Below, piece after piece: positions 1,848 to 7,646 of a DNA stretch of 20,920 nt (its first letter is position 1; every line of letters starts with the position of its first letter). The position numbers were made by a program, and so were the translations under genes. The notes below the pieces were generated by a model. That model saw only the letters and a list, made by a program, of their open reading frames with translations. It ran no database searches and was not told the DNA's origin. The DNA is taken from IMG/VR virus record IMGVR_UViG_2585427758_000006, one strand, 5' to 3'. Source of the DNA: a virus. Taxonomy: Duplodnaviria > Heunggongvirae > Uroviricota > Caudoviricetes.

Positions 1848-2411
1848 GTGCTGACAACGCAAAAACGAAAATTTGCGCTGGCGCTCATGTCCGGGAAAAA
1901 CAAAACAGCGTCAGCCATTGCCGCCGGTTATTCGGCGAAGACAGCCAGGGTTAAAGGCTCGCAGCTGGCAAAAGATCCGGAGGTGCTCGCGTTTATAGCC
2001 CGTAAACAGTGCGAGACGGTGGAGGTGGATGAGGTTCCTGTTTACCGGCAGAAAAAATCAGAGCAGGAGGATAAACCCCGTCGCCGTGAGGCGGCTGCAA
2101 TACCACAGCCGGACGAAACAAATCCGGAGATGCCACCGTCCGCGGTGATGTCTCCTGGTATTGAATATATGGAGGATGGTCTTCCCGATCCGGTGAAAGC
2201 CATGGGGCGGATCCTGGTGGAAAACCTCTGCATTGATCCGAAACTGGCACTGGATGCGGCCTGGCGTCTGGCGCAGTTCACGCACCATAAAAAAGGGGAT
2301 ACCGGGAAAAAATCGGCAAAAGGTGACGCCGCGAAAAAAGCGGCTAACCGTTTTGCGGTGCCACCACCACCCCGCCTGGTGGTGAATAATGATAATGAGG
2401 GCAACGGATGA
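1848..2411 (+). CDS. Terminase small subunit (P27-like family)
   Basis: GTG start at 1848 with GGAGG 5-9 nt upstream; N-terminus MLTTQKRKFALALMSGKNKTASAIAAGYSAKTARVKGSQLAKDPEV is typical of small terminase; stop overlaps the large-subunit start (ATGA). Confidence 0.8.
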   Translation: MLTTQKRKFALALMSGKNKTASAIAAGYSAKTARVKGSQLAKDPEVLAFIARKQCETVEVDEVPVYRQKKSEQEDKPRRREAAAIPQPDETNPEMPPSAVMSPGIEYMEDGLPDPVKAMGRILVENLCIDPKLALDAAWRLAQFTHHKKGDTGKKSAKGDAAKKAANRFAVPPPPRLVVNNDNEGNG

Positions 2412-4069
2412 TACCTGTGTGGAGCACGGCCTGCCCGGACTGGGCAGAGCGCCTGAAAAAGGGGCTGTCGATTATTCCGGCTCCGATTTATCCGGAGCAG
2501 GCCGCACATGCCCTGGCGATTTTTAAACAACTGCGGATTGTGGATGCACCGGGCAGCCCGACGTTCGGGGAGTCCTGCGCACATTGGGTGTTTGACCTGG
2601 TGGCGGCCCTGTTTGGCTCCTACGATGCGCAGACCGGTGTACGCCATATCAAGGAAGTTTTTATCCTTATCCCCAAGAAAAACAGCAAGTCCACGCTGGC
2701 TGCCGGGATCATGATGACGGCGCTGTTACTGAACTGGCGGCAGGCGGCGGGCTACACCATTCTGGCCCCGACCGTGGAGGTGGCGGCTAACGCCTTCAAC
2801 CCTGCCAGGGATATGGTACGACGGGACGATGATCTGGATGACCTCTGTCAGGTGCAGACACATATCCGGACCATCACCCACAGGGTGACGGACACCACCC
2901 TTAAGGTGGTGGCTGCCGATCCGAATACGGTATCCGGTATCAAGTCCGTGGGGACGCTGATTGATGAACTGTGGTTATTTGGCAAGCAGTACAAAGCGGA
3001 GGACATGTTACGTGAAGCCATAGGCGGCCTTGCCTCCCGCCCGGAAGGGTTTGTGGTGTATACGACCACCCAGTCGAATGAGCCGCCAGCCGGGGTGTTC
3101 AGACAGAAACTGCAGTACGCCCGGGATGTCCGTGACGGCAAAATTCATGATCCGCACTTTCTGCCGGTGATATTTGAACACCCTCCTGAAATGGTGGAAA
3201 GCGGGGCTCACCTGCTGATGGAAAACCTCGCCATGGTCAATCCGAATCTCGGCTATTCAGTGGATGAGGCCTTTCTGTACCGGGAGTACCGTAAAGCCCG
3301 GGAAGCCGGTGAAGAGACATTCCGGGGGTTCATGTCAAAACACGCCAATGTGGAAATTGGTCTTGCCCTGCGCTCTGACCGCTGGGCGGGGGCTGATTTC
3401 TGGGAAGAGCAGGGCCGTTGTATCAGCCTGGACGATATCCTGCGTCGTGCTGATGTGGTGACGGTGGGGATTGACGGCGGAGGGCTGGATGATCTGCTGG
3501 GGATGTATGTGATTGGGCGTGACCGGGAGACCCGCGAATGGCTGGGCTGGGGCCATGCCTGGGCGCATGAAACCGCGGTGGTCCGACGGAAGAGCGAGGC
3601 GTCCCGGTTTCAGGATCTTGTTGCCTGTGGAGATATGACCATTGTCCGGCGTGTCGGGGATGACACGGCGGAAGTGGCGGAATATGTGCGTCGCATTCAT
3701 GAGGCTGAGTTACTGGACCATATCGGTATTGACCCGTCAGGGGTGGGGCAGATTCTGGATTCACTGGCGGAAGCCGGGATCCCCGACGGAATTGTGGTGG
3801 GGATAAGCCAGGGCTGGAAACTGGGCGGGGCCATTAAAACCACCGAGCGCAAACTGGCTGAAGGGGTGCTGGTGCATGGTGACCAGCCCCTGATGGCCTG
3901 GTGTGTCGGCAATGCCCGGGTGGAGCCTAAAGGTAACGCCATTCTTATCACCAAACAGGCCAGCGGACGGGGAAAAATTGACCCGCTGATGGCGCTGTTC
4001 AATGCGGTCTCCCTGATGTCCCTTAACCCGGAACCGAAAAAGAAAGAATATGCGGTTTTTTTCATATAA
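2408..4069 (+). CDS. Terminase large subunit
   Basis: 553-aa ORF translationally coupled to the small subunit, in the size and position expected for TerL; the family assignment is by recall of prophage TerL sequences, without a motif check. Confidence 0.9.
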   Translation: MIPVWSTACPDWAERLKKGLSIIPAPIYPEQAAHALAIFKQLRIVDAPGSPTFGESCAHWVFDLVAALFGSYDAQTGVRHIKEVFILIPKKNSKSTLAAGIMMTALLLNWRQAAGYTILAPTVEVAANAFNPARDMVRRDDDLDDLCQVQTHIRTITHRVTDTTLKVVAADPNTVSGIKSVGTLIDELWLFGKQYKAEDMLREAIGGLASRPEGFVVYTTTQSNEPPAGVFRQKLQYARDVRDGKIHDPHFLPVIFEHPPEMVESGAHLLMENLAMVNPNLGYSVDEAFLYREYRKAREAGEETFRGFMSKHANVEIGLALRSDRWAGADFWEEQGRCISLDDILRRADVVTVGIDGGGLDDLLGMYVIGRDRETREWLGWGHAWAHETAVVRRKSEASRFQDLVACGDMTIVRRVGDDTAEVAEYVRRIHEAELLDHIGIDPSGVGQILDSLAEAGIPDGIVVGISQGWKLGGAIKTTERKLAEGVLVHGDQPLMAWCVGNARVEPKGNAILITKQASGRGKIDPLMALFNAVSLMSLNPEPKKKEYAVFFI

Positions 4070-4094
4070 CCCTGTTCACACTGTAACCATCACG

Positions 4095-4117
4095 AACCGC
4101 TGCGGCGGTTTTTTTAT
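4095..4117 (+). terminator. Intrinsic-terminator-like hairpin between terL and the capsid gene
   Basis: AACCGC-tgcg-GCGGTT stem-loop followed by a T7-8 run, immediately upstream of the caggagg RBS of the next gene. Confidence 0.5.
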
Positions 4118-4132
4118 TTTCAGGAGGCTGAT

Positions 4133-6070
4133 GTGACTCTTAAACGGGCCTGTTCCCTGCTGACGGTGAAATCCTTCAGTGAGGATGAACGGGTGATCAC
4201 CGGGATTGCGTCAACGCCTTCTCCGGATCGGGATGGTGACATCCTGGAGCCGGAGGGCGCGGAGTTTGGCAGTGCGATCCCGTTTCTCTGGCAGCATGAC
4301 CATTCCCGCCCGGTGGGGCAGTGTACGGTACGCCGGGTCAGCGAAGGGCTGGAAATCACGGCAACACTGGTGAAGCCCGTACCGGATATGCCGTCGCAAC
4401 TGGCTGCCCGGCTGGATGAGGTCTGGGCGGCCATTAAGACCGGGCTGGTCAGGGGGCTGTCCGTGGGCTTCCGTCCCCATGAATACACCTTTCTGGACGG
4501 AGGCGGACTGCATTTTCTGCGCTGGGAACTGATGGAGGTGTCTGCCGTCACCGTGCCCGCGAATGCGGAATGCACCATCCGGACCATTAAATCTTACGAC
4601 CGCCCGTTTTCTGCCGCGTCCGGCAACCGGAAACCGGTGGTGAAAATCGCATCTTCTGCCGGCGCTGCGGCACAGTCAACAACCGTTTTTCATAAGGAAA
4701 AGACCATAATGAATATTGGCGAACAGATTAAAAGTTTTGAAAACAAGCGTGCAGCGCTGGCAGCCTCCCTTGAGGAGGTCATGACCAAAGCCGCAGAGGA
4801 AGGGCGCACGCTGGATGTGGAGGAGGAAGAGCACTACGACAACACCGCAGCGGAAATCCGTCAGGTGGATGCGCACCTGAAGCGCCTGCGTGAACTGGAA
4901 ACCAGTAAGGCCGCCACGGCACAGCCGGTGAAACAGGCCGGTAACGGGAATGTGGCCGCGGTGGCTTCTGCGCCGGTGATCCGTGTGGAGCAGAAACTGG
5001 ATAAGGGGATTGGCTTCGCCCGCTTTGCCAAATCGCTGGCTGCGGCTAAAGGCGTCCGATCTGAAGCCCTGGAAGTGGCCCGTCGTCAGTATCCGGATGA
5101 CAGTCGTCTGCATCATGTCCTGAAATCGGCAGTGGGCGCGGGGACCACCACGGATCCGCAGTGGGCAGGCAGCCTGTCTGAATATCAGGAATACGCACAG
5201 GACTTTATTGATTACCTGCGTCCGCAGACCATTATCGGGCGATTTGGTCAGGGCGGGATCCCTGCACTTCGTCAGGTGCCGTTCAATATCCGTGTGCACG
5301 CCCAGGTGTCCGGCGGTGCTGCCGGCTGGGTGGGTGAGGGTAAGGCCAGACCCCTGACGAAGTTTGATTTTGAATCCATCACCTTCAGTCATGCGAAAGT
5401 GTCGGCCATTGCGGTACTGACGGAAGAATTGATCCGTTTTTCCAGTCCGGCTGCTGATGCACTGGTCCGTAATGCGCTGGCGGAAGCGGTGGTGGCGCGT
5501 CTGGATACAGACTTTGTGGACCCGAAAAAAGCCGCAGTGGCAGATGTCTCCCCGGCGTCCATCACCCATGATGTGAAGGGCACGGCATCAACCGGTAACC
5601 CGGATGCGGATGCAGAGGCGGCGTTTGGCCAGTTTGTGGCAGCAAACCTGCAGCCCACCGGTGCGGTCTGGCTGATGTCCAGCACCAATGCCCTGGCACT
5701 GTCCATGCGTAAAAATGCGCTGGGTCAGAAGGAATACCCGGACATGACCCTGCTGGGTGGCTCCTTCCAGGGGCTGCCGGTGATTGTCTCCCAGTACGTG
5801 GGTGACCAGCTGGTGCTGGTGAATGCCCCGGATATTTATCTGGCGGATGACGGCGGCGTGGCAGTGGATATGTCCCGCGAGGCATCACTGGAAATGCAGT
5901 CTGAGCCGGGCGGCGACAGTACCACGCCGTCCCCGGTGGAGCTGGTTTCCATGTTCCAGACAGGCAGCGTGGCCATCCGTGCGGAGCGCTGGATCAACTG
6001 GCGTCGTCGCCGTACCGCGGCGGTGGCGGTGATCACCGGAGTGAACTACGGCAGTGCGTCCGGCGGCTGA
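4133..6070 (+). CDS. HK97-family prohead protease fused in frame to major capsid protein
   Basis: GTG start at 4133 with caggagg RBS. N-terminal ~170 aa carry HK97 prohead-protease signatures (...GIASTPSPDRDGDILEP...WQHDHSRPVGQ...GLSVGF...MEVSAVTVPAN); C-terminal ~450 aa resemble an HK97-fold capsid protein with a coiled-coil delta domain. Confidence 0.85.
   Translation: MTLKRACSLLTVKSFSEDERVITGIASTPSPDRDGDILEPEGAEFGSAIPFLWQHDHSRPVGQCTVRRVSEGLEITATLVKPVPDMPSQLAARLDEVWAAIKTGLVRGLSVGFRPHEYTFLDGGGLHFLRWELMEVSAVTVPANAECTIRTIKSYDRPFSAASGNRKPVVKIASSAGAAAQSTTVFHKEKTIMNIGEQIKSFENKRAALAASLEEVMTKAAEEGRTLDVEEEEHYDNTAAEIRQVDAHLKRLRELETSKAATAQPVKQAGNGNVAAVASAPVIRVEQKLDKGIGFARFAKSLAAAKGVRSEALEVARRQYPDDSRLHHVLKSAVGAGTTTDPQWAGSLSEYQEYAQDFIDYLRPQTIIGRFGQGGIPALRQVPFNIRVHAQVSGGAAGWVGEGKARPLTKFDFESITFSHAKVSAIAVLTEELIRFSSPAADALVRNALAEAVVARLDTDFVDPKKAAVADVSPASITHDVKGTASTGNPDADAEAAFGQFVAANLQPTGAVWLMSSTNALALSMRKNALGQKEYPDMTLLGGSFQGLPVIVSQYVGDQLVLVNAPDIYLADDGGVAVDMSREASLEMQSEPGGDSTTPSPVELVSMFQTGSVAIRAERWINWRRRRTAAVAVITGVNYGSASGG
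4709..6070 (+). CDS. Possible internally initiated major capsid protein (delta domain plus capsid), in frame within the protease-capsid ORF
   Basis: In-frame ATG at 4709 preceded by aaggaa at 4694-4699; the product MNIGEQIKSFENKRAALAASLEE... would begin at the start of the coiled-coil region. Analogous to the lambda C/Nu3 in-frame arrangement. Confidence 0.35.
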   Translation: MNIGEQIKSFENKRAALAASLEEVMTKAAEEGRTLDVEEEEHYDNTAAEIRQVDAHLKRLRELETSKAATAQPVKQAGNGNVAAVASAPVIRVEQKLDKGIGFARFAKSLAAAKGVRSEALEVARRQYPDDSRLHHVLKSAVGAGTTTDPQWAGSLSEYQEYAQDFIDYLRPQTIIGRFGQGGIPALRQVPFNIRVHAQVSGGAAGWVGEGKARPLTKFDFESITFSHAKVSAIAVLTEELIRFSSPAADALVRNALAEAVVARLDTDFVDPKKAAVADVSPASITHDVKGTASTGNPDADAEAAFGQFVAANLQPTGAVWLMSSTNALALSMRKNALGQKEYPDMTLLGGSFQGLPVIVSQYVGDQLVLVNAPDIYLADDGGVAVDMSREASLEMQSEPGGDSTTPSPVELVSMFQTGSVAIRAERWINWRRRRTAAVAVITGVNYGSASGG

Positions 6071-6114
6071 GTCTGATGAGGAGGACGGGAGGCGTGCGCC
6101 TCCCGTAACAGGTT

Positions 6115-6336
6115 ATGGCAAAGATCCGATATCTGCAGGGCACGCATGATGCCCGGGCCGGGGATATCCGTGATGTGGCACAGCCGTGTGCGGAGGTGCT
6201 GGTTCGCCTGGGGAAGGCGGAGTACATCACAGTGCGACGTCCGGCAGGTCAGAAAAAGAAACGTGATGCGGAGCATGGCGAATGTGGAACCTTTTGCGGC
6301 GAACCCGAAAAAACCAGAAATCAGGACGTGATGTAA
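6115..6336 (+). CDS. Hypothetical small protein between capsid and portal genes
   Basis: 73-aa ORF with a weak RBS that overlaps the annotated portal start by 55 nt in another frame; no recognisable family. May not be expressed. Confidence 0.2.
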   Translation: MAKIRYLQGTHDARAGDIRDVAQPCAEVLVRLGKAEYITVRRPAGQKKKRDAEHGECGTFCGEPEKTRNQDVM

Positions 6337-7646
6337 AAGAGGTGGGCTGGACCAGCCTGTTTCAGGCGGTGGCTGAGCCCTTTGCTGGCGCCTGGCAGCA
6401 GGGTGTGAAAGCCGATCCGGAAAGTGTCCTCTCCTTTCATGCGGTGTTTTCTTGCATTTCGCTGATATCCCAGGATATCGCCAAAATGCGGCTGCGCCTG
6501 ATGCAGACGGATACACAGGGGATCCGCTGTGAAAAACGGCAGGGGGATATTGCCCGTCTCTGTCGTCGTCCCAATGCACAGCAGAATCGTATCCAGTTTT
6601 TTGAACTGTGGCTGAACGCCAAACTGCGTCACGGCAATACGGTGGTGCTGAAAATCCGTAACTCCCGGGGGCAGATCAAAGAACTGCGTATTCTGGACTG
6701 GAGCCGGGTTGAACCTCTGGTGGCGGATGACGGCGAGGTGTTCTATCGCATCACGCCGGACCGGAACTGCGGGATCACGGAGGCGGTGACGGTGCCTGCC
6801 CGGGAAGTGATCCACGACCGGTTTAACTGTTTTTTTCATCCGCTTGTGGGGCTGCCGCCGGTGTATGCCGCCGGGCTGGCGGCCACGCAGGGGCATCATA
6901 TTCAGGAAAATTCGACGTCTTTTTTCAGAAATGGCGGCAGGCCGTCCGGGGTGATTGAGATCCCCGGCAGTATTACGGAAGAAAATGCGAAAAAACTGAA
7001 GAGCAACTGGGACAGCGGGTATACAGGCGAAAATGCGGGGAAAACGGCCATTCTGAGCAACGGGGCAAAATACAACCCCACGACGTTTTCACCGGTGGAT
7101 GCGCAGACGGTGGAACAACTGAAGATGACCGCTGAAATTGTCTGTTCGGTGTTCCGTGTCCCGGCCTACAAGATTGGCGTTGGCCAGCCACCTTCCAGTG
7201 ACAACGTGGAGGCGCTGGAGCAGCAGTATTATTCCCAGTGCCTGCAGACGCTGATTGAGTCCATTGAACTGTTACTGGATGAGGCGCTGGAAACGGGGGA
7301 AAACGAGAGTACGGAGTTTGACGTCACCACGCTGCTGAGAATGGACAGCGAACGGCGCATGAAAACGCTGGGTGAGTCGGTGAAAAATACGCTTCTCACG
7401 CCCAATGAGGCCCGTAAACGTGAGAACCTGCCGCCCCTTGCGGGAGGTGATGCACTGTATCTTCAGCAGCAGAACTACAGTCTGGAGGCGCTGTCCCGTC
7501 GTGATGCCCGTGAAGATCCGTTCGCGTCGACCGGGAAAACGGCCTTAGCGCAACCGCCTGACGGCGCATCTGACGGTAATAAGGCAATCACTGAAACAGA
7601 GCATGGTGCGGTGAAGGCGATGTTCAGGGGGATTCTGAAAAAATGA
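6282..7646 (+). CDS. Portal protein (HK97-like family)
   Basis: 454-aa ORF with portal-like segments (...FSCISLISQDIAKMRLRL..., ...GVIEIPGSITEENAKKLKSNWDSGYTGENAGKTAILSNGAKY..., ...LKMTAEIVCSVFRVPAYKIG...). The exact start is uncertain. Confidence 0.85.
   Translation: MWNLLRRTRKNQKSGRDVKEVGWTSLFQAVAEPFAGAWQQGVKADPESVLSFHAVFSCISLISQDIAKMRLRLMQTDTQGIRCEKRQGDIARLCRRPNAQQNRIQFFELWLNAKLRHGNTVVLKIRNSRGQIKELRILDWSRVEPLVADDGEVFYRITPDRNCGITEAVTVPAREVIHDRFNCFFHPLVGLPPVYAAGLAATQGHHIQENSTSFFRNGGRPSGVIEIPGSITEENAKKLKSNWDSGYTGENAGKTAILSNGAKYNPTTFSPVDAQTVEQLKMTAEIVCSVFRVPAYKIGVGQPPSSDNVEALEQQYYSQCLQTLIESIELLLDEALETGENESTEFDVTTLLRMDSERRMKTLGESVKNTLLTPNEARKRENLPPLAGGDALYLQQQNYSLEALSRRDAREDPFASTGKTALAQPPDGASDGNKAITETEHGAVKAMFRGILKK

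Follow-up and report, generated by a model that had tools for sequence, protein, structure and literature searches.

The stretch of DNA examined here, a window of 20,920 nucleotides from a virus of the class Caudoviricetes (IMG/VR record IMGVR_UViG_2585427758_000006), carries between positions 4133 and 6070 of its plus strand a single long open reading frame (ORF) of 645 codons that opens with GTG, the sole long ORF in that part of the window. Its full-length product (645 aa, 69.1 kDa) joins, in this order, a protease, a linker, a delta-like scaffold and an HK97-fold capsid protein, and the locus raises the question of whether the frame is read as this one protein or as two. Our answer, to which we give a probability of about 0.75 from the comparisons described below, is that one late-operon frame would yield two proteins through two independent translation starts, the GTG at 4133 and an in-frame ATG at 4709.

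The ATG at 4709–4711 lies in frame with the GTG at 4133, (4709 − 4133)/3 being 192, and thus specifies Met193, which in the AlphaFold2 model stands at the exact end of a disordered linker, two residues ahead of the first delta helix. The motif aaggaa at 4695–4700 leaves 8 nt to this ATG. A preliminary description of the window had pointed to the in-frame ATG with aaggaa as its Shine–Dalgarno (SD) sequence, which coordinates and sequence confirm; it had also put the ATG at the start of the delta domain, where structure prediction now places the domain boundary, and had divided the 645-aa ORF into a protease, a coiled-coil delta-like and a capsid part, a division with which Pfam, AlphaFold2 and Foldseek concur. 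The duplex of AAGGAA with the anti-SD sequence has an energy of −6.2 kcal/mol, equalled or bettered at 12.7 % of the codon positions of the ORF, and the 45 nt around 4709 show both the lowest GC content of the gene (33 % vs 61 %) and its weakest predicted fold (−3.5 vs −12.8 kcal/mol). The significance of the internal start site comes from the comparison with relatives and not from this single sequence.

Met193 was invariant in 120 homologues of 73–99 % identity, in which the flanking upstream residues were variable, and the whole segment M-N-I-A-E-Q-I-K-S-F-E was invariant in these close homologues (Salmonella, Enterobacter, Klebsiella, Serratia, Pantoea and others); the residues upstream of Met193 nearly always included Lys-Gly, Lys-Lys-Gly or Lys-Glu. 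The 645-aa protein belongs to a protein cluster with 9916 members, and a profile-free search that exhaustively covered 1.84 billion representatives found 12,518 matches, of which the best 150 (38–56 % identity) were examined. Fusions made up 145 of these best 150 matches. At the equivalent position, which lies 4–9 residues ahead of the E-Q-I conserved in the first delta helix, Met was present in 131 of the 145 fused cluster representatives and Val or Leu in the remaining 14. In the DNA of 12 of these 14 exceptions, Val was encoded by GTG in 11 of 11 cases and Leu by TTG in the single case (1/1), and all 12 carried GGAG, GGAGG, AAGGA or AGGAG 6–9 nt upstream. With the Val codon usage of each gene as the basis, replacement by GTG or TTG only has a chance of about 1e-5, and it is difficult to account at the protein level for a Met that gives way only to alternative start codons. 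In the database, five shorter proteins have their first residue exactly at the position equivalent to Met193.

The ribosome-binding site was compared over a wider range by a one-genome-per-species scan with a 10-sequence alignment, which gave 80 species-level loci of 39–77 % identity from Gamma-, Alpha- and Betaproteobacteria as well as a few other phyla. Within a set of 79 genes, comprising the window gene and the 78 species-level loci with an open frame, the internal start codon was ATG in 73, GTG in three and TTG in three, and a motif of the GGAGG, AGGA or AAGG type stood 5–10 nt upstream of it in 75 of the 79 diverse genes (GGAGG 27, AGGA 25, AAGG 12, others making up the rest). The mean anti-SD duplex energy at the internal start was −7.6 kcal/mol, compared with −2.6 kcal/mol at 1118 in-frame ATGs elsewhere in the same genes (Mann–Whitney p = 2e-31; paired Wilcoxon p = 8e-15), p values which, to the disadvantage of our reading, overstate independence, homologues being phylogenetically related. 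Synonymous recoding of the seven upstream codons according to each gene's own codon usage left an SD of −5.95 kcal/mol, weaker than the original −7.6 kcal/mol (p = 5e-11); codon choice thus contributes to the internal SD, most of its signal running through Lys/Glu/Gly residues in an otherwise free linker. The dips seen in the window recurred in this family comparison, the internal-start region having a GC content of 46 % vs 61 % elsewhere in the genes and a minimum free energy of −6.6 vs −11.8 kcal/mol (p ~1e-14). In 81 close loci, TAAGGAAAAG was retained, with a spacer to the start that varied.

As judged from these alignments, the internal start codon and its ribosome-binding site are under strong purifying selection, and a complete translation-initiation site under selection at the end of the linker would mean that the protein starting at Met193 matters. 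Conservation of the 4709 ATG and its SD among homologues had been set beforehand as the test that could refute an internal start, and both were found to be kept far above expectation; the kept start codon, the SD, the low GC content, the weak fold and the domain boundary together support the preliminary reading of 4709 as a probable start.

Several further points weigh against two starts. In this window alone the SD at 4709 is ordinary and within chance. Across the family the SD is mostly carried by encoded Lys-Glu-Gly, Lys-Gly and Lys-Glu, codon choice adding ~1.7 kcal/mol, and part of the motif may have a peptide-level cause. SD matches were poor in five loci (L125, L152, L156, L126 and L146), and our literature search found no N-terminal, ribosome-profiling or proteomic data on this gene. 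In one alternative the full-length polyprotein is the only product, the protease sits on every shell subunit and the internal ATG with its purine motif is a relic of two former genes or is kept at the protein level. An open frame and an upstream start with a strong SD fit this alternative, as do the annotation of the fusion everywhere as a single gene and the share of the encoded Lys/Glu/Gly residues in SD strength, and by a rough estimate that assumes HK97-like prohead dimensions, ~415 copies of an internal part of ~30 kDa would fill about half of the interior of a T=7 prohead, which is crowded and still possible. A relic, however, would not outlast divergence to 38 % identity within a hypervariable linker, and the replacement of Met by GTG or TTG alone (12/12) is a nucleotide-level signature, as are the dips in GC content and structure and the effect of codon choice. 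We consider a polyprotein-only gene distinctly unlikely.

The fusion itself is real, common and already annotated. The window represents an E. coli prophage of the Shiga toxin (Stx) type. DNA of 97–99.5 % identity was found in 93 phage records, all of one group (BP-4795, 2851, YYZ-2008, 1717 and JLK-2012), made up of Stx-converting and related E. coli phages of the lambdoid type; their annotations for the gene read 'putative major head protein/prohead protease' (e.g. BP-4795), 'major capsid protein' or 'phage prohead protease', and one PHROGs family bears the name 'major head and protease protein'. Among the species-level loci, the frame was open through both domains in 78 of 80 despite the hypervariable linker. 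The comparison shows strong purifying selection on the fusion frame across the linker, and since the frame is kept open through so variable a segment, the fusion protein would matter in its own right.

That the single ORF is an artefact, produced by a sequencing error or, in a pseudogene, by loss of the stop codon that had kept protease and capsid genes apart, could be argued from the existence of an unfused relative, Burkholderia phage vB_SBP39, and from Stenotrophomonas phage SOVA965, which is annotated in pieces. The same 645-codon frame nevertheless occurs in the 93 phage records, inducible Stx phages included, in 80 IMG/VR viral-contig loci (relatives of 96–99 % identity), in the 9916-member protein cluster and in 78 of the 80 loci of different species, and we regard an artefact as next to negligible. 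As a separate observation on the SOVA965 record (L174, PP079418.1 3502–5587), the region is annotated as three coding sequences, a protease and two 'major capsid protein' pieces, and the match is also broken into three pieces, which suggests frameshifts or sequencing errors in that record.

In vB_SBP39 (39 % identity) the protease gene is closed by a TAA stop, and behind it AAGGA precedes a capsid gene whose first residue is the homologous Met (MTIAEKI). This bears on a further alternative, in which the SD-like motif is no start but a site at which pairing with the anti-SD pauses ribosomes so that the protease can fold. The place of the motif, in the linker right after a folded domain, fits such a role, which leaves unexplained both the conserved ATG, GTG or TTG at fixed spacing and the capsid start of unfused relatives at the same place. 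Later ribosome-profiling work is also said to dispute SD-mediated pausing, and we think a mere pause site very improbable.

Two further phages illustrate the fused state. In ORF003 of Pseudomonas phage PAJU2, which is annotated as 'prohead protease fused capsid protein', the homologous ATG is preceded by GGAGG at a distance of 8 nt; this ORF belongs to the same family and has the same fused architecture, being 55.6 % identical to representative P0135, which in turn is 45–47 % identical to the window protein. Microbacterium phage Anseraureola gp5 (L177, 3807–5393) has an in-frame ATG at codon 166, where the protease domain has just ended; GAGAGGA lies 10 nt upstream of this ATG, and local folding there is weak. 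Gp5 is an independent fusion, and from this single case the nested arrangement may be general and occur in actinobacteriophages as well. Another candidate for an independent fusion, the 'coat protein' of Moraxella phage Mcat19, was rejected, as it is really two separate genes under a loose annotation.

The features of the gene are listed in Table 1. Pfam matched Peptidase_S78 (PF04586) at aa 48–152 (34.7 bits, cut-off 21) and Phage_capsid (PF05065) at aa 386–635 (53.5 bits, cut-off 24.2), PHROG 80 ('head maturation protease') matched the 645-aa protein with E = 3e-41, and every domain match of this protein was to S78 protease or HK97-type capsid families. His55 (4295–4297) and Ser110 (4460–4462) were invariant in a 38-sequence alignment (38–78 % identity); we take them to be the counterparts of His65 and Ser114 of HK97 gp4 and assume a catalytic role. 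AlphaFold2, run with the same 38-sequence alignment, gave a mean predicted local distance difference test (pLDDT) score of 77 and divided the protein into a folded part (1–145), a disordered part (146–192), two helices (195–223 and 229–262), a second disordered part (265–285) and a body (290–645). The two delta helices scored 85–92 and were confident even in a single-sequence AlphaFold2 run, in which the delta hairpin alone was usable (overall pLDDT 38). Foldseek found the Bxb1, HK97, D3 and T5 capsids as the best PDB fold matches of aa 290–645 (E 1e-14 to 1e-9, probability 1.00). By analogy with HK97 gp5, reportedly cleaved at Lys103/Ser104, the maturation cleavage probably falls near the disordered residues 265–285, within a predicted range of aa 265–345.

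Table 1. Features of the protease–capsid gene in the window, with the basis on which each was assigned
Feature	Position	Strand	Basis
Shine–Dalgarno of the full-length frame, AGGAGG	4121..4126	+	5 nt before GTG 4133; anti-SD duplex −10.3 kcal/mol
Full-length ORF, protease–linker–delta–capsid	4133..6070	+	ORF call, Pfam, AlphaFold2
S78 (HK97-type) prohead serine protease domain, aa 1–145	4133..4567	+	PF04586; AlphaFold2 pLDDT ~80–89
Hypervariable disordered linker, aa 146–192, frame open	4568..4708	+	AlphaFold2 pLDDT <50; variable across homologues
Internal Shine–Dalgarno AAGGAA, codes Lys-Glu	4695..4700	+	Sequence; 8 nt before ATG 4709
Proposed nested gene, delta + capsid, from Met193 (453 aa, 48.3 kDa)	4709..6070	+	Conserved start codon; relatives
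Delta-like scaffolding segment, helical hairpin, aa 195–262	4715..4918	+	AlphaFold2 helices 195–223 and 229–262
Disordered segment, aa 265–285, probable maturation-cleavage region (inferred)	4925..4987	+	AlphaFold2 pLDDT <50; HK97 gp5 analogy
HK97-fold major capsid protein body, aa 290–645	5000..6067	+	PF05065; Foldseek

From this arrangement we infer the synthesis of both products, their co-assembly and their cleavage. Ribosomes starting at the GTG at 4133 would make a 69-kDa protease–linker–delta–capsid polyprotein, and ribosomes starting at the ATG at 4709, with an SD of its own in an AT-rich, weakly folded stretch, would make a 48-kDa delta–capsid protein. Because both forms would share the same delta scaffold and HK97-fold shell domains, they would be expected to co-assemble into a procapsid, into which the long form would bring the S78 protease, tethered by a flexible linker of ~45 residues. 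Once assembly is complete, the protease would remove the delta domain, together with its own domain, from all subunits, leaving identical mature shell subunits as the capsid expands.

Both products might also be made without the long form serving as a shell subunit; it would then be delta-bound scaffold cargo or act in trans, its capsid domain being irrelevant or removed by self-cleavage in the linker before assembly. A motif [PA]-G-[AV]-[ST]-[GA], conserved ~15–25 residues upstream of Met193 in many homologues, could be such a self-cleavage site, and free HK97 gp4 is reportedly targeted by its C-terminal tail, which counts for this alternative. Release before assembly, on the other hand, gives no reason for the open frame in 78 of 80 lineages, and we consider a long form outside the shell rather unlikely.

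The linker motif is worth recording for its own sake. It lies at window positions 4655–4680 (aa 175–183), ~10–25 residues before Met193, and is kept within an otherwise variable linker; it reads SAGAAAQ here and PGASG in many relatives and is a candidate protease self-cleavage or recognition site. The linker also contains GTTTTTC, a possible −1 frameshift motif confined to the E. coli clade. A second in-frame ATG, at 4781 (Met217), was considered as a start and rejected: its GAGGAGG is stronger but spaced by 2–3 nt, the stretch is structured and GC-rich, and PAJU2 has no SD there. The sequence at 4770–4783 is probably no start; Met217 is conserved as a delta-helix residue.

The upstream start was ATG in 75 of 77 relatives, with a mean SD of −7.8 kcal/mol. 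A weak upstream start as a family-wide low-expression device was ruled out on this count (75/77 with ATG and a good SD), and the GTG of this phage is not such a general device because the family start is ATG with an equally good SD. It counts against the proposed dual initiation that across the family the upstream start matches the internal one in strength, so that sequence gives no sign of an excess of the short product. A minority of long forms would be favoured by the rough estimate given above of a half-filled T=7 interior.

Nested pairs of protease and scaffold are known from lambda C/Nu3, Mu I/Z and HSV-1 (herpes simplex virus 1) UL26/UL26.5, and the lambda C protease is of an S49-like family, not S78. 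With lambda C/Nu3 we draw a parallel in gene layout and claim no homology. These pairs and gp17/gp17.5 of the archaeal virus HFTV1 have an N-terminal protease and an in-frame internal start that gives the assembly part alone, and in arrangements of the lambda C/Nu3 type the long form shares the C-terminal assembly domain, by which the protease enters the procapsid, a route that for the present gene is predicted from sequence. In lambda, Mu, HSV-1 and HFTV1, however, what the internal start yields is a free scaffolding protein, a separate gene encoding the shell protein, whereas here the nested product would be scaffold and shell in one chain, in HK97 style, and the long form a precursor of the capsid subunit. 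The system also resembles HK97 gp4/gp5 in its S78 protease and in the helical delta-like N-terminal scaffold joined to an HK97-fold shell protein, and no separate scaffold gene is apparent beside the protease–capsid gene, as in HK97. It differs in that gp4 and gp5 are two genes, whereas here no stop codon intervenes and the tether is covalent, and in gene order, which in HK97 is portal, protease, capsid and here terminase large subunit, protease–capsid, small ORF, portal. The HFTV1 gp17/gp17.5 internal start was shown by initiation-arrested ribosome profiling and mass spectrometry (bioRxiv 10.64898/2026.09.13.751334), in a paper whose discussion also treats the lambda, Mu and HSV cases.

The protease–capsid fusion has been noted before as a single product (PMC6563490; bioRxiv 10.1101/2020.01.10.891226; PMC9671004), and the text of these three papers, as far as it is readable, does not mention an internal start. 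The searchable full texts contained no proposal or test of an internal start in protease–capsid fusions, an earlier statement elsewhere being possible, and a nested-gene annotation was absent from all database records examined.

With regard to its surroundings, the gene is preceded by the small and large terminase subunits and followed by a 73-aa ORF, the portal gene and head–tail and tail genes. The order of terminase large subunit, fusion, small ORF (~70–120 aa) and portal, at 2408–7646 of the window, was kept in the distant loci L084, L085 and L091. Between the stop of the terminase large subunit (4069) and the SD of the protease–capsid gene lies a terminator-like hairpin, GAACCGC-TGCG-GCGGTTT followed by a T-run (4094–4120); the scanned region contained two such sites, against a chance expectation of 2.2. 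Downstream, the portal ORF (6282–7646, 454 aa) and the ORF at 7643–9028 (461 aa) matched the N- and C-terminal halves, respectively, of the 859-position PHROG 'portal protein' profile phrog_2271. Their junction (7635–7649) reads CTG AAA AAA TGA, and the ATG at 7643 that opens the second ORF is in the −1 frame; the two ORFs may be one protein in some relatives and could here be joined by a −1 shift on the A-run. The 461-aa protein, encoded directly after the portal gene, also contains a 162-bp (54-aa) tandem repeat at 7868–8562, with 4.3 copies that are 96 % identical and the unit PVPRDGRDYDPDVLQKAVNDAVANIPQPADGKSLTPDDVRPMLEQMVKEAVSHI.

Looking beyond this window, we think it fairly probable that the whole family of S78 protease–capsid fusions hides a conserved, unannotated nested capsid gene, the two starts forming a complete self-maturing procapsid kit (protease, scaffold and shell) in which the number of proteases in each capsid would be set by the ratio of the initiation rates, with no targeting peptide in that role. 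The family so understood covers thousands of prophage genes in Proteobacteria and other phyla, and possibly the independent fusions of actinobacteriophages. The idea follows naturally from known phage biology and would not greatly surprise a specialist. Use of the internal start would make the standard annotation incomplete, since RefSeq and all Stx-phage records examined list one product for the gene, a 'major capsid protein' or a 'prohead protease'; the databases would then lack the main capsid precursor, a protein of 453 aa, of a large group of Shiga-toxin phages and related prophages. Such phages would have another route for loading the protease, covalently joined to a minority of shell subunits and dosed by dual initiation, which would carry the principle of the lambda C/Nu3 and herpesvirus UL26/UL26.5 pairs over to phages lacking a separate scaffold protein, and the gene would offer a compact one-gene system for engineered protein shells that assemble and process themselves.

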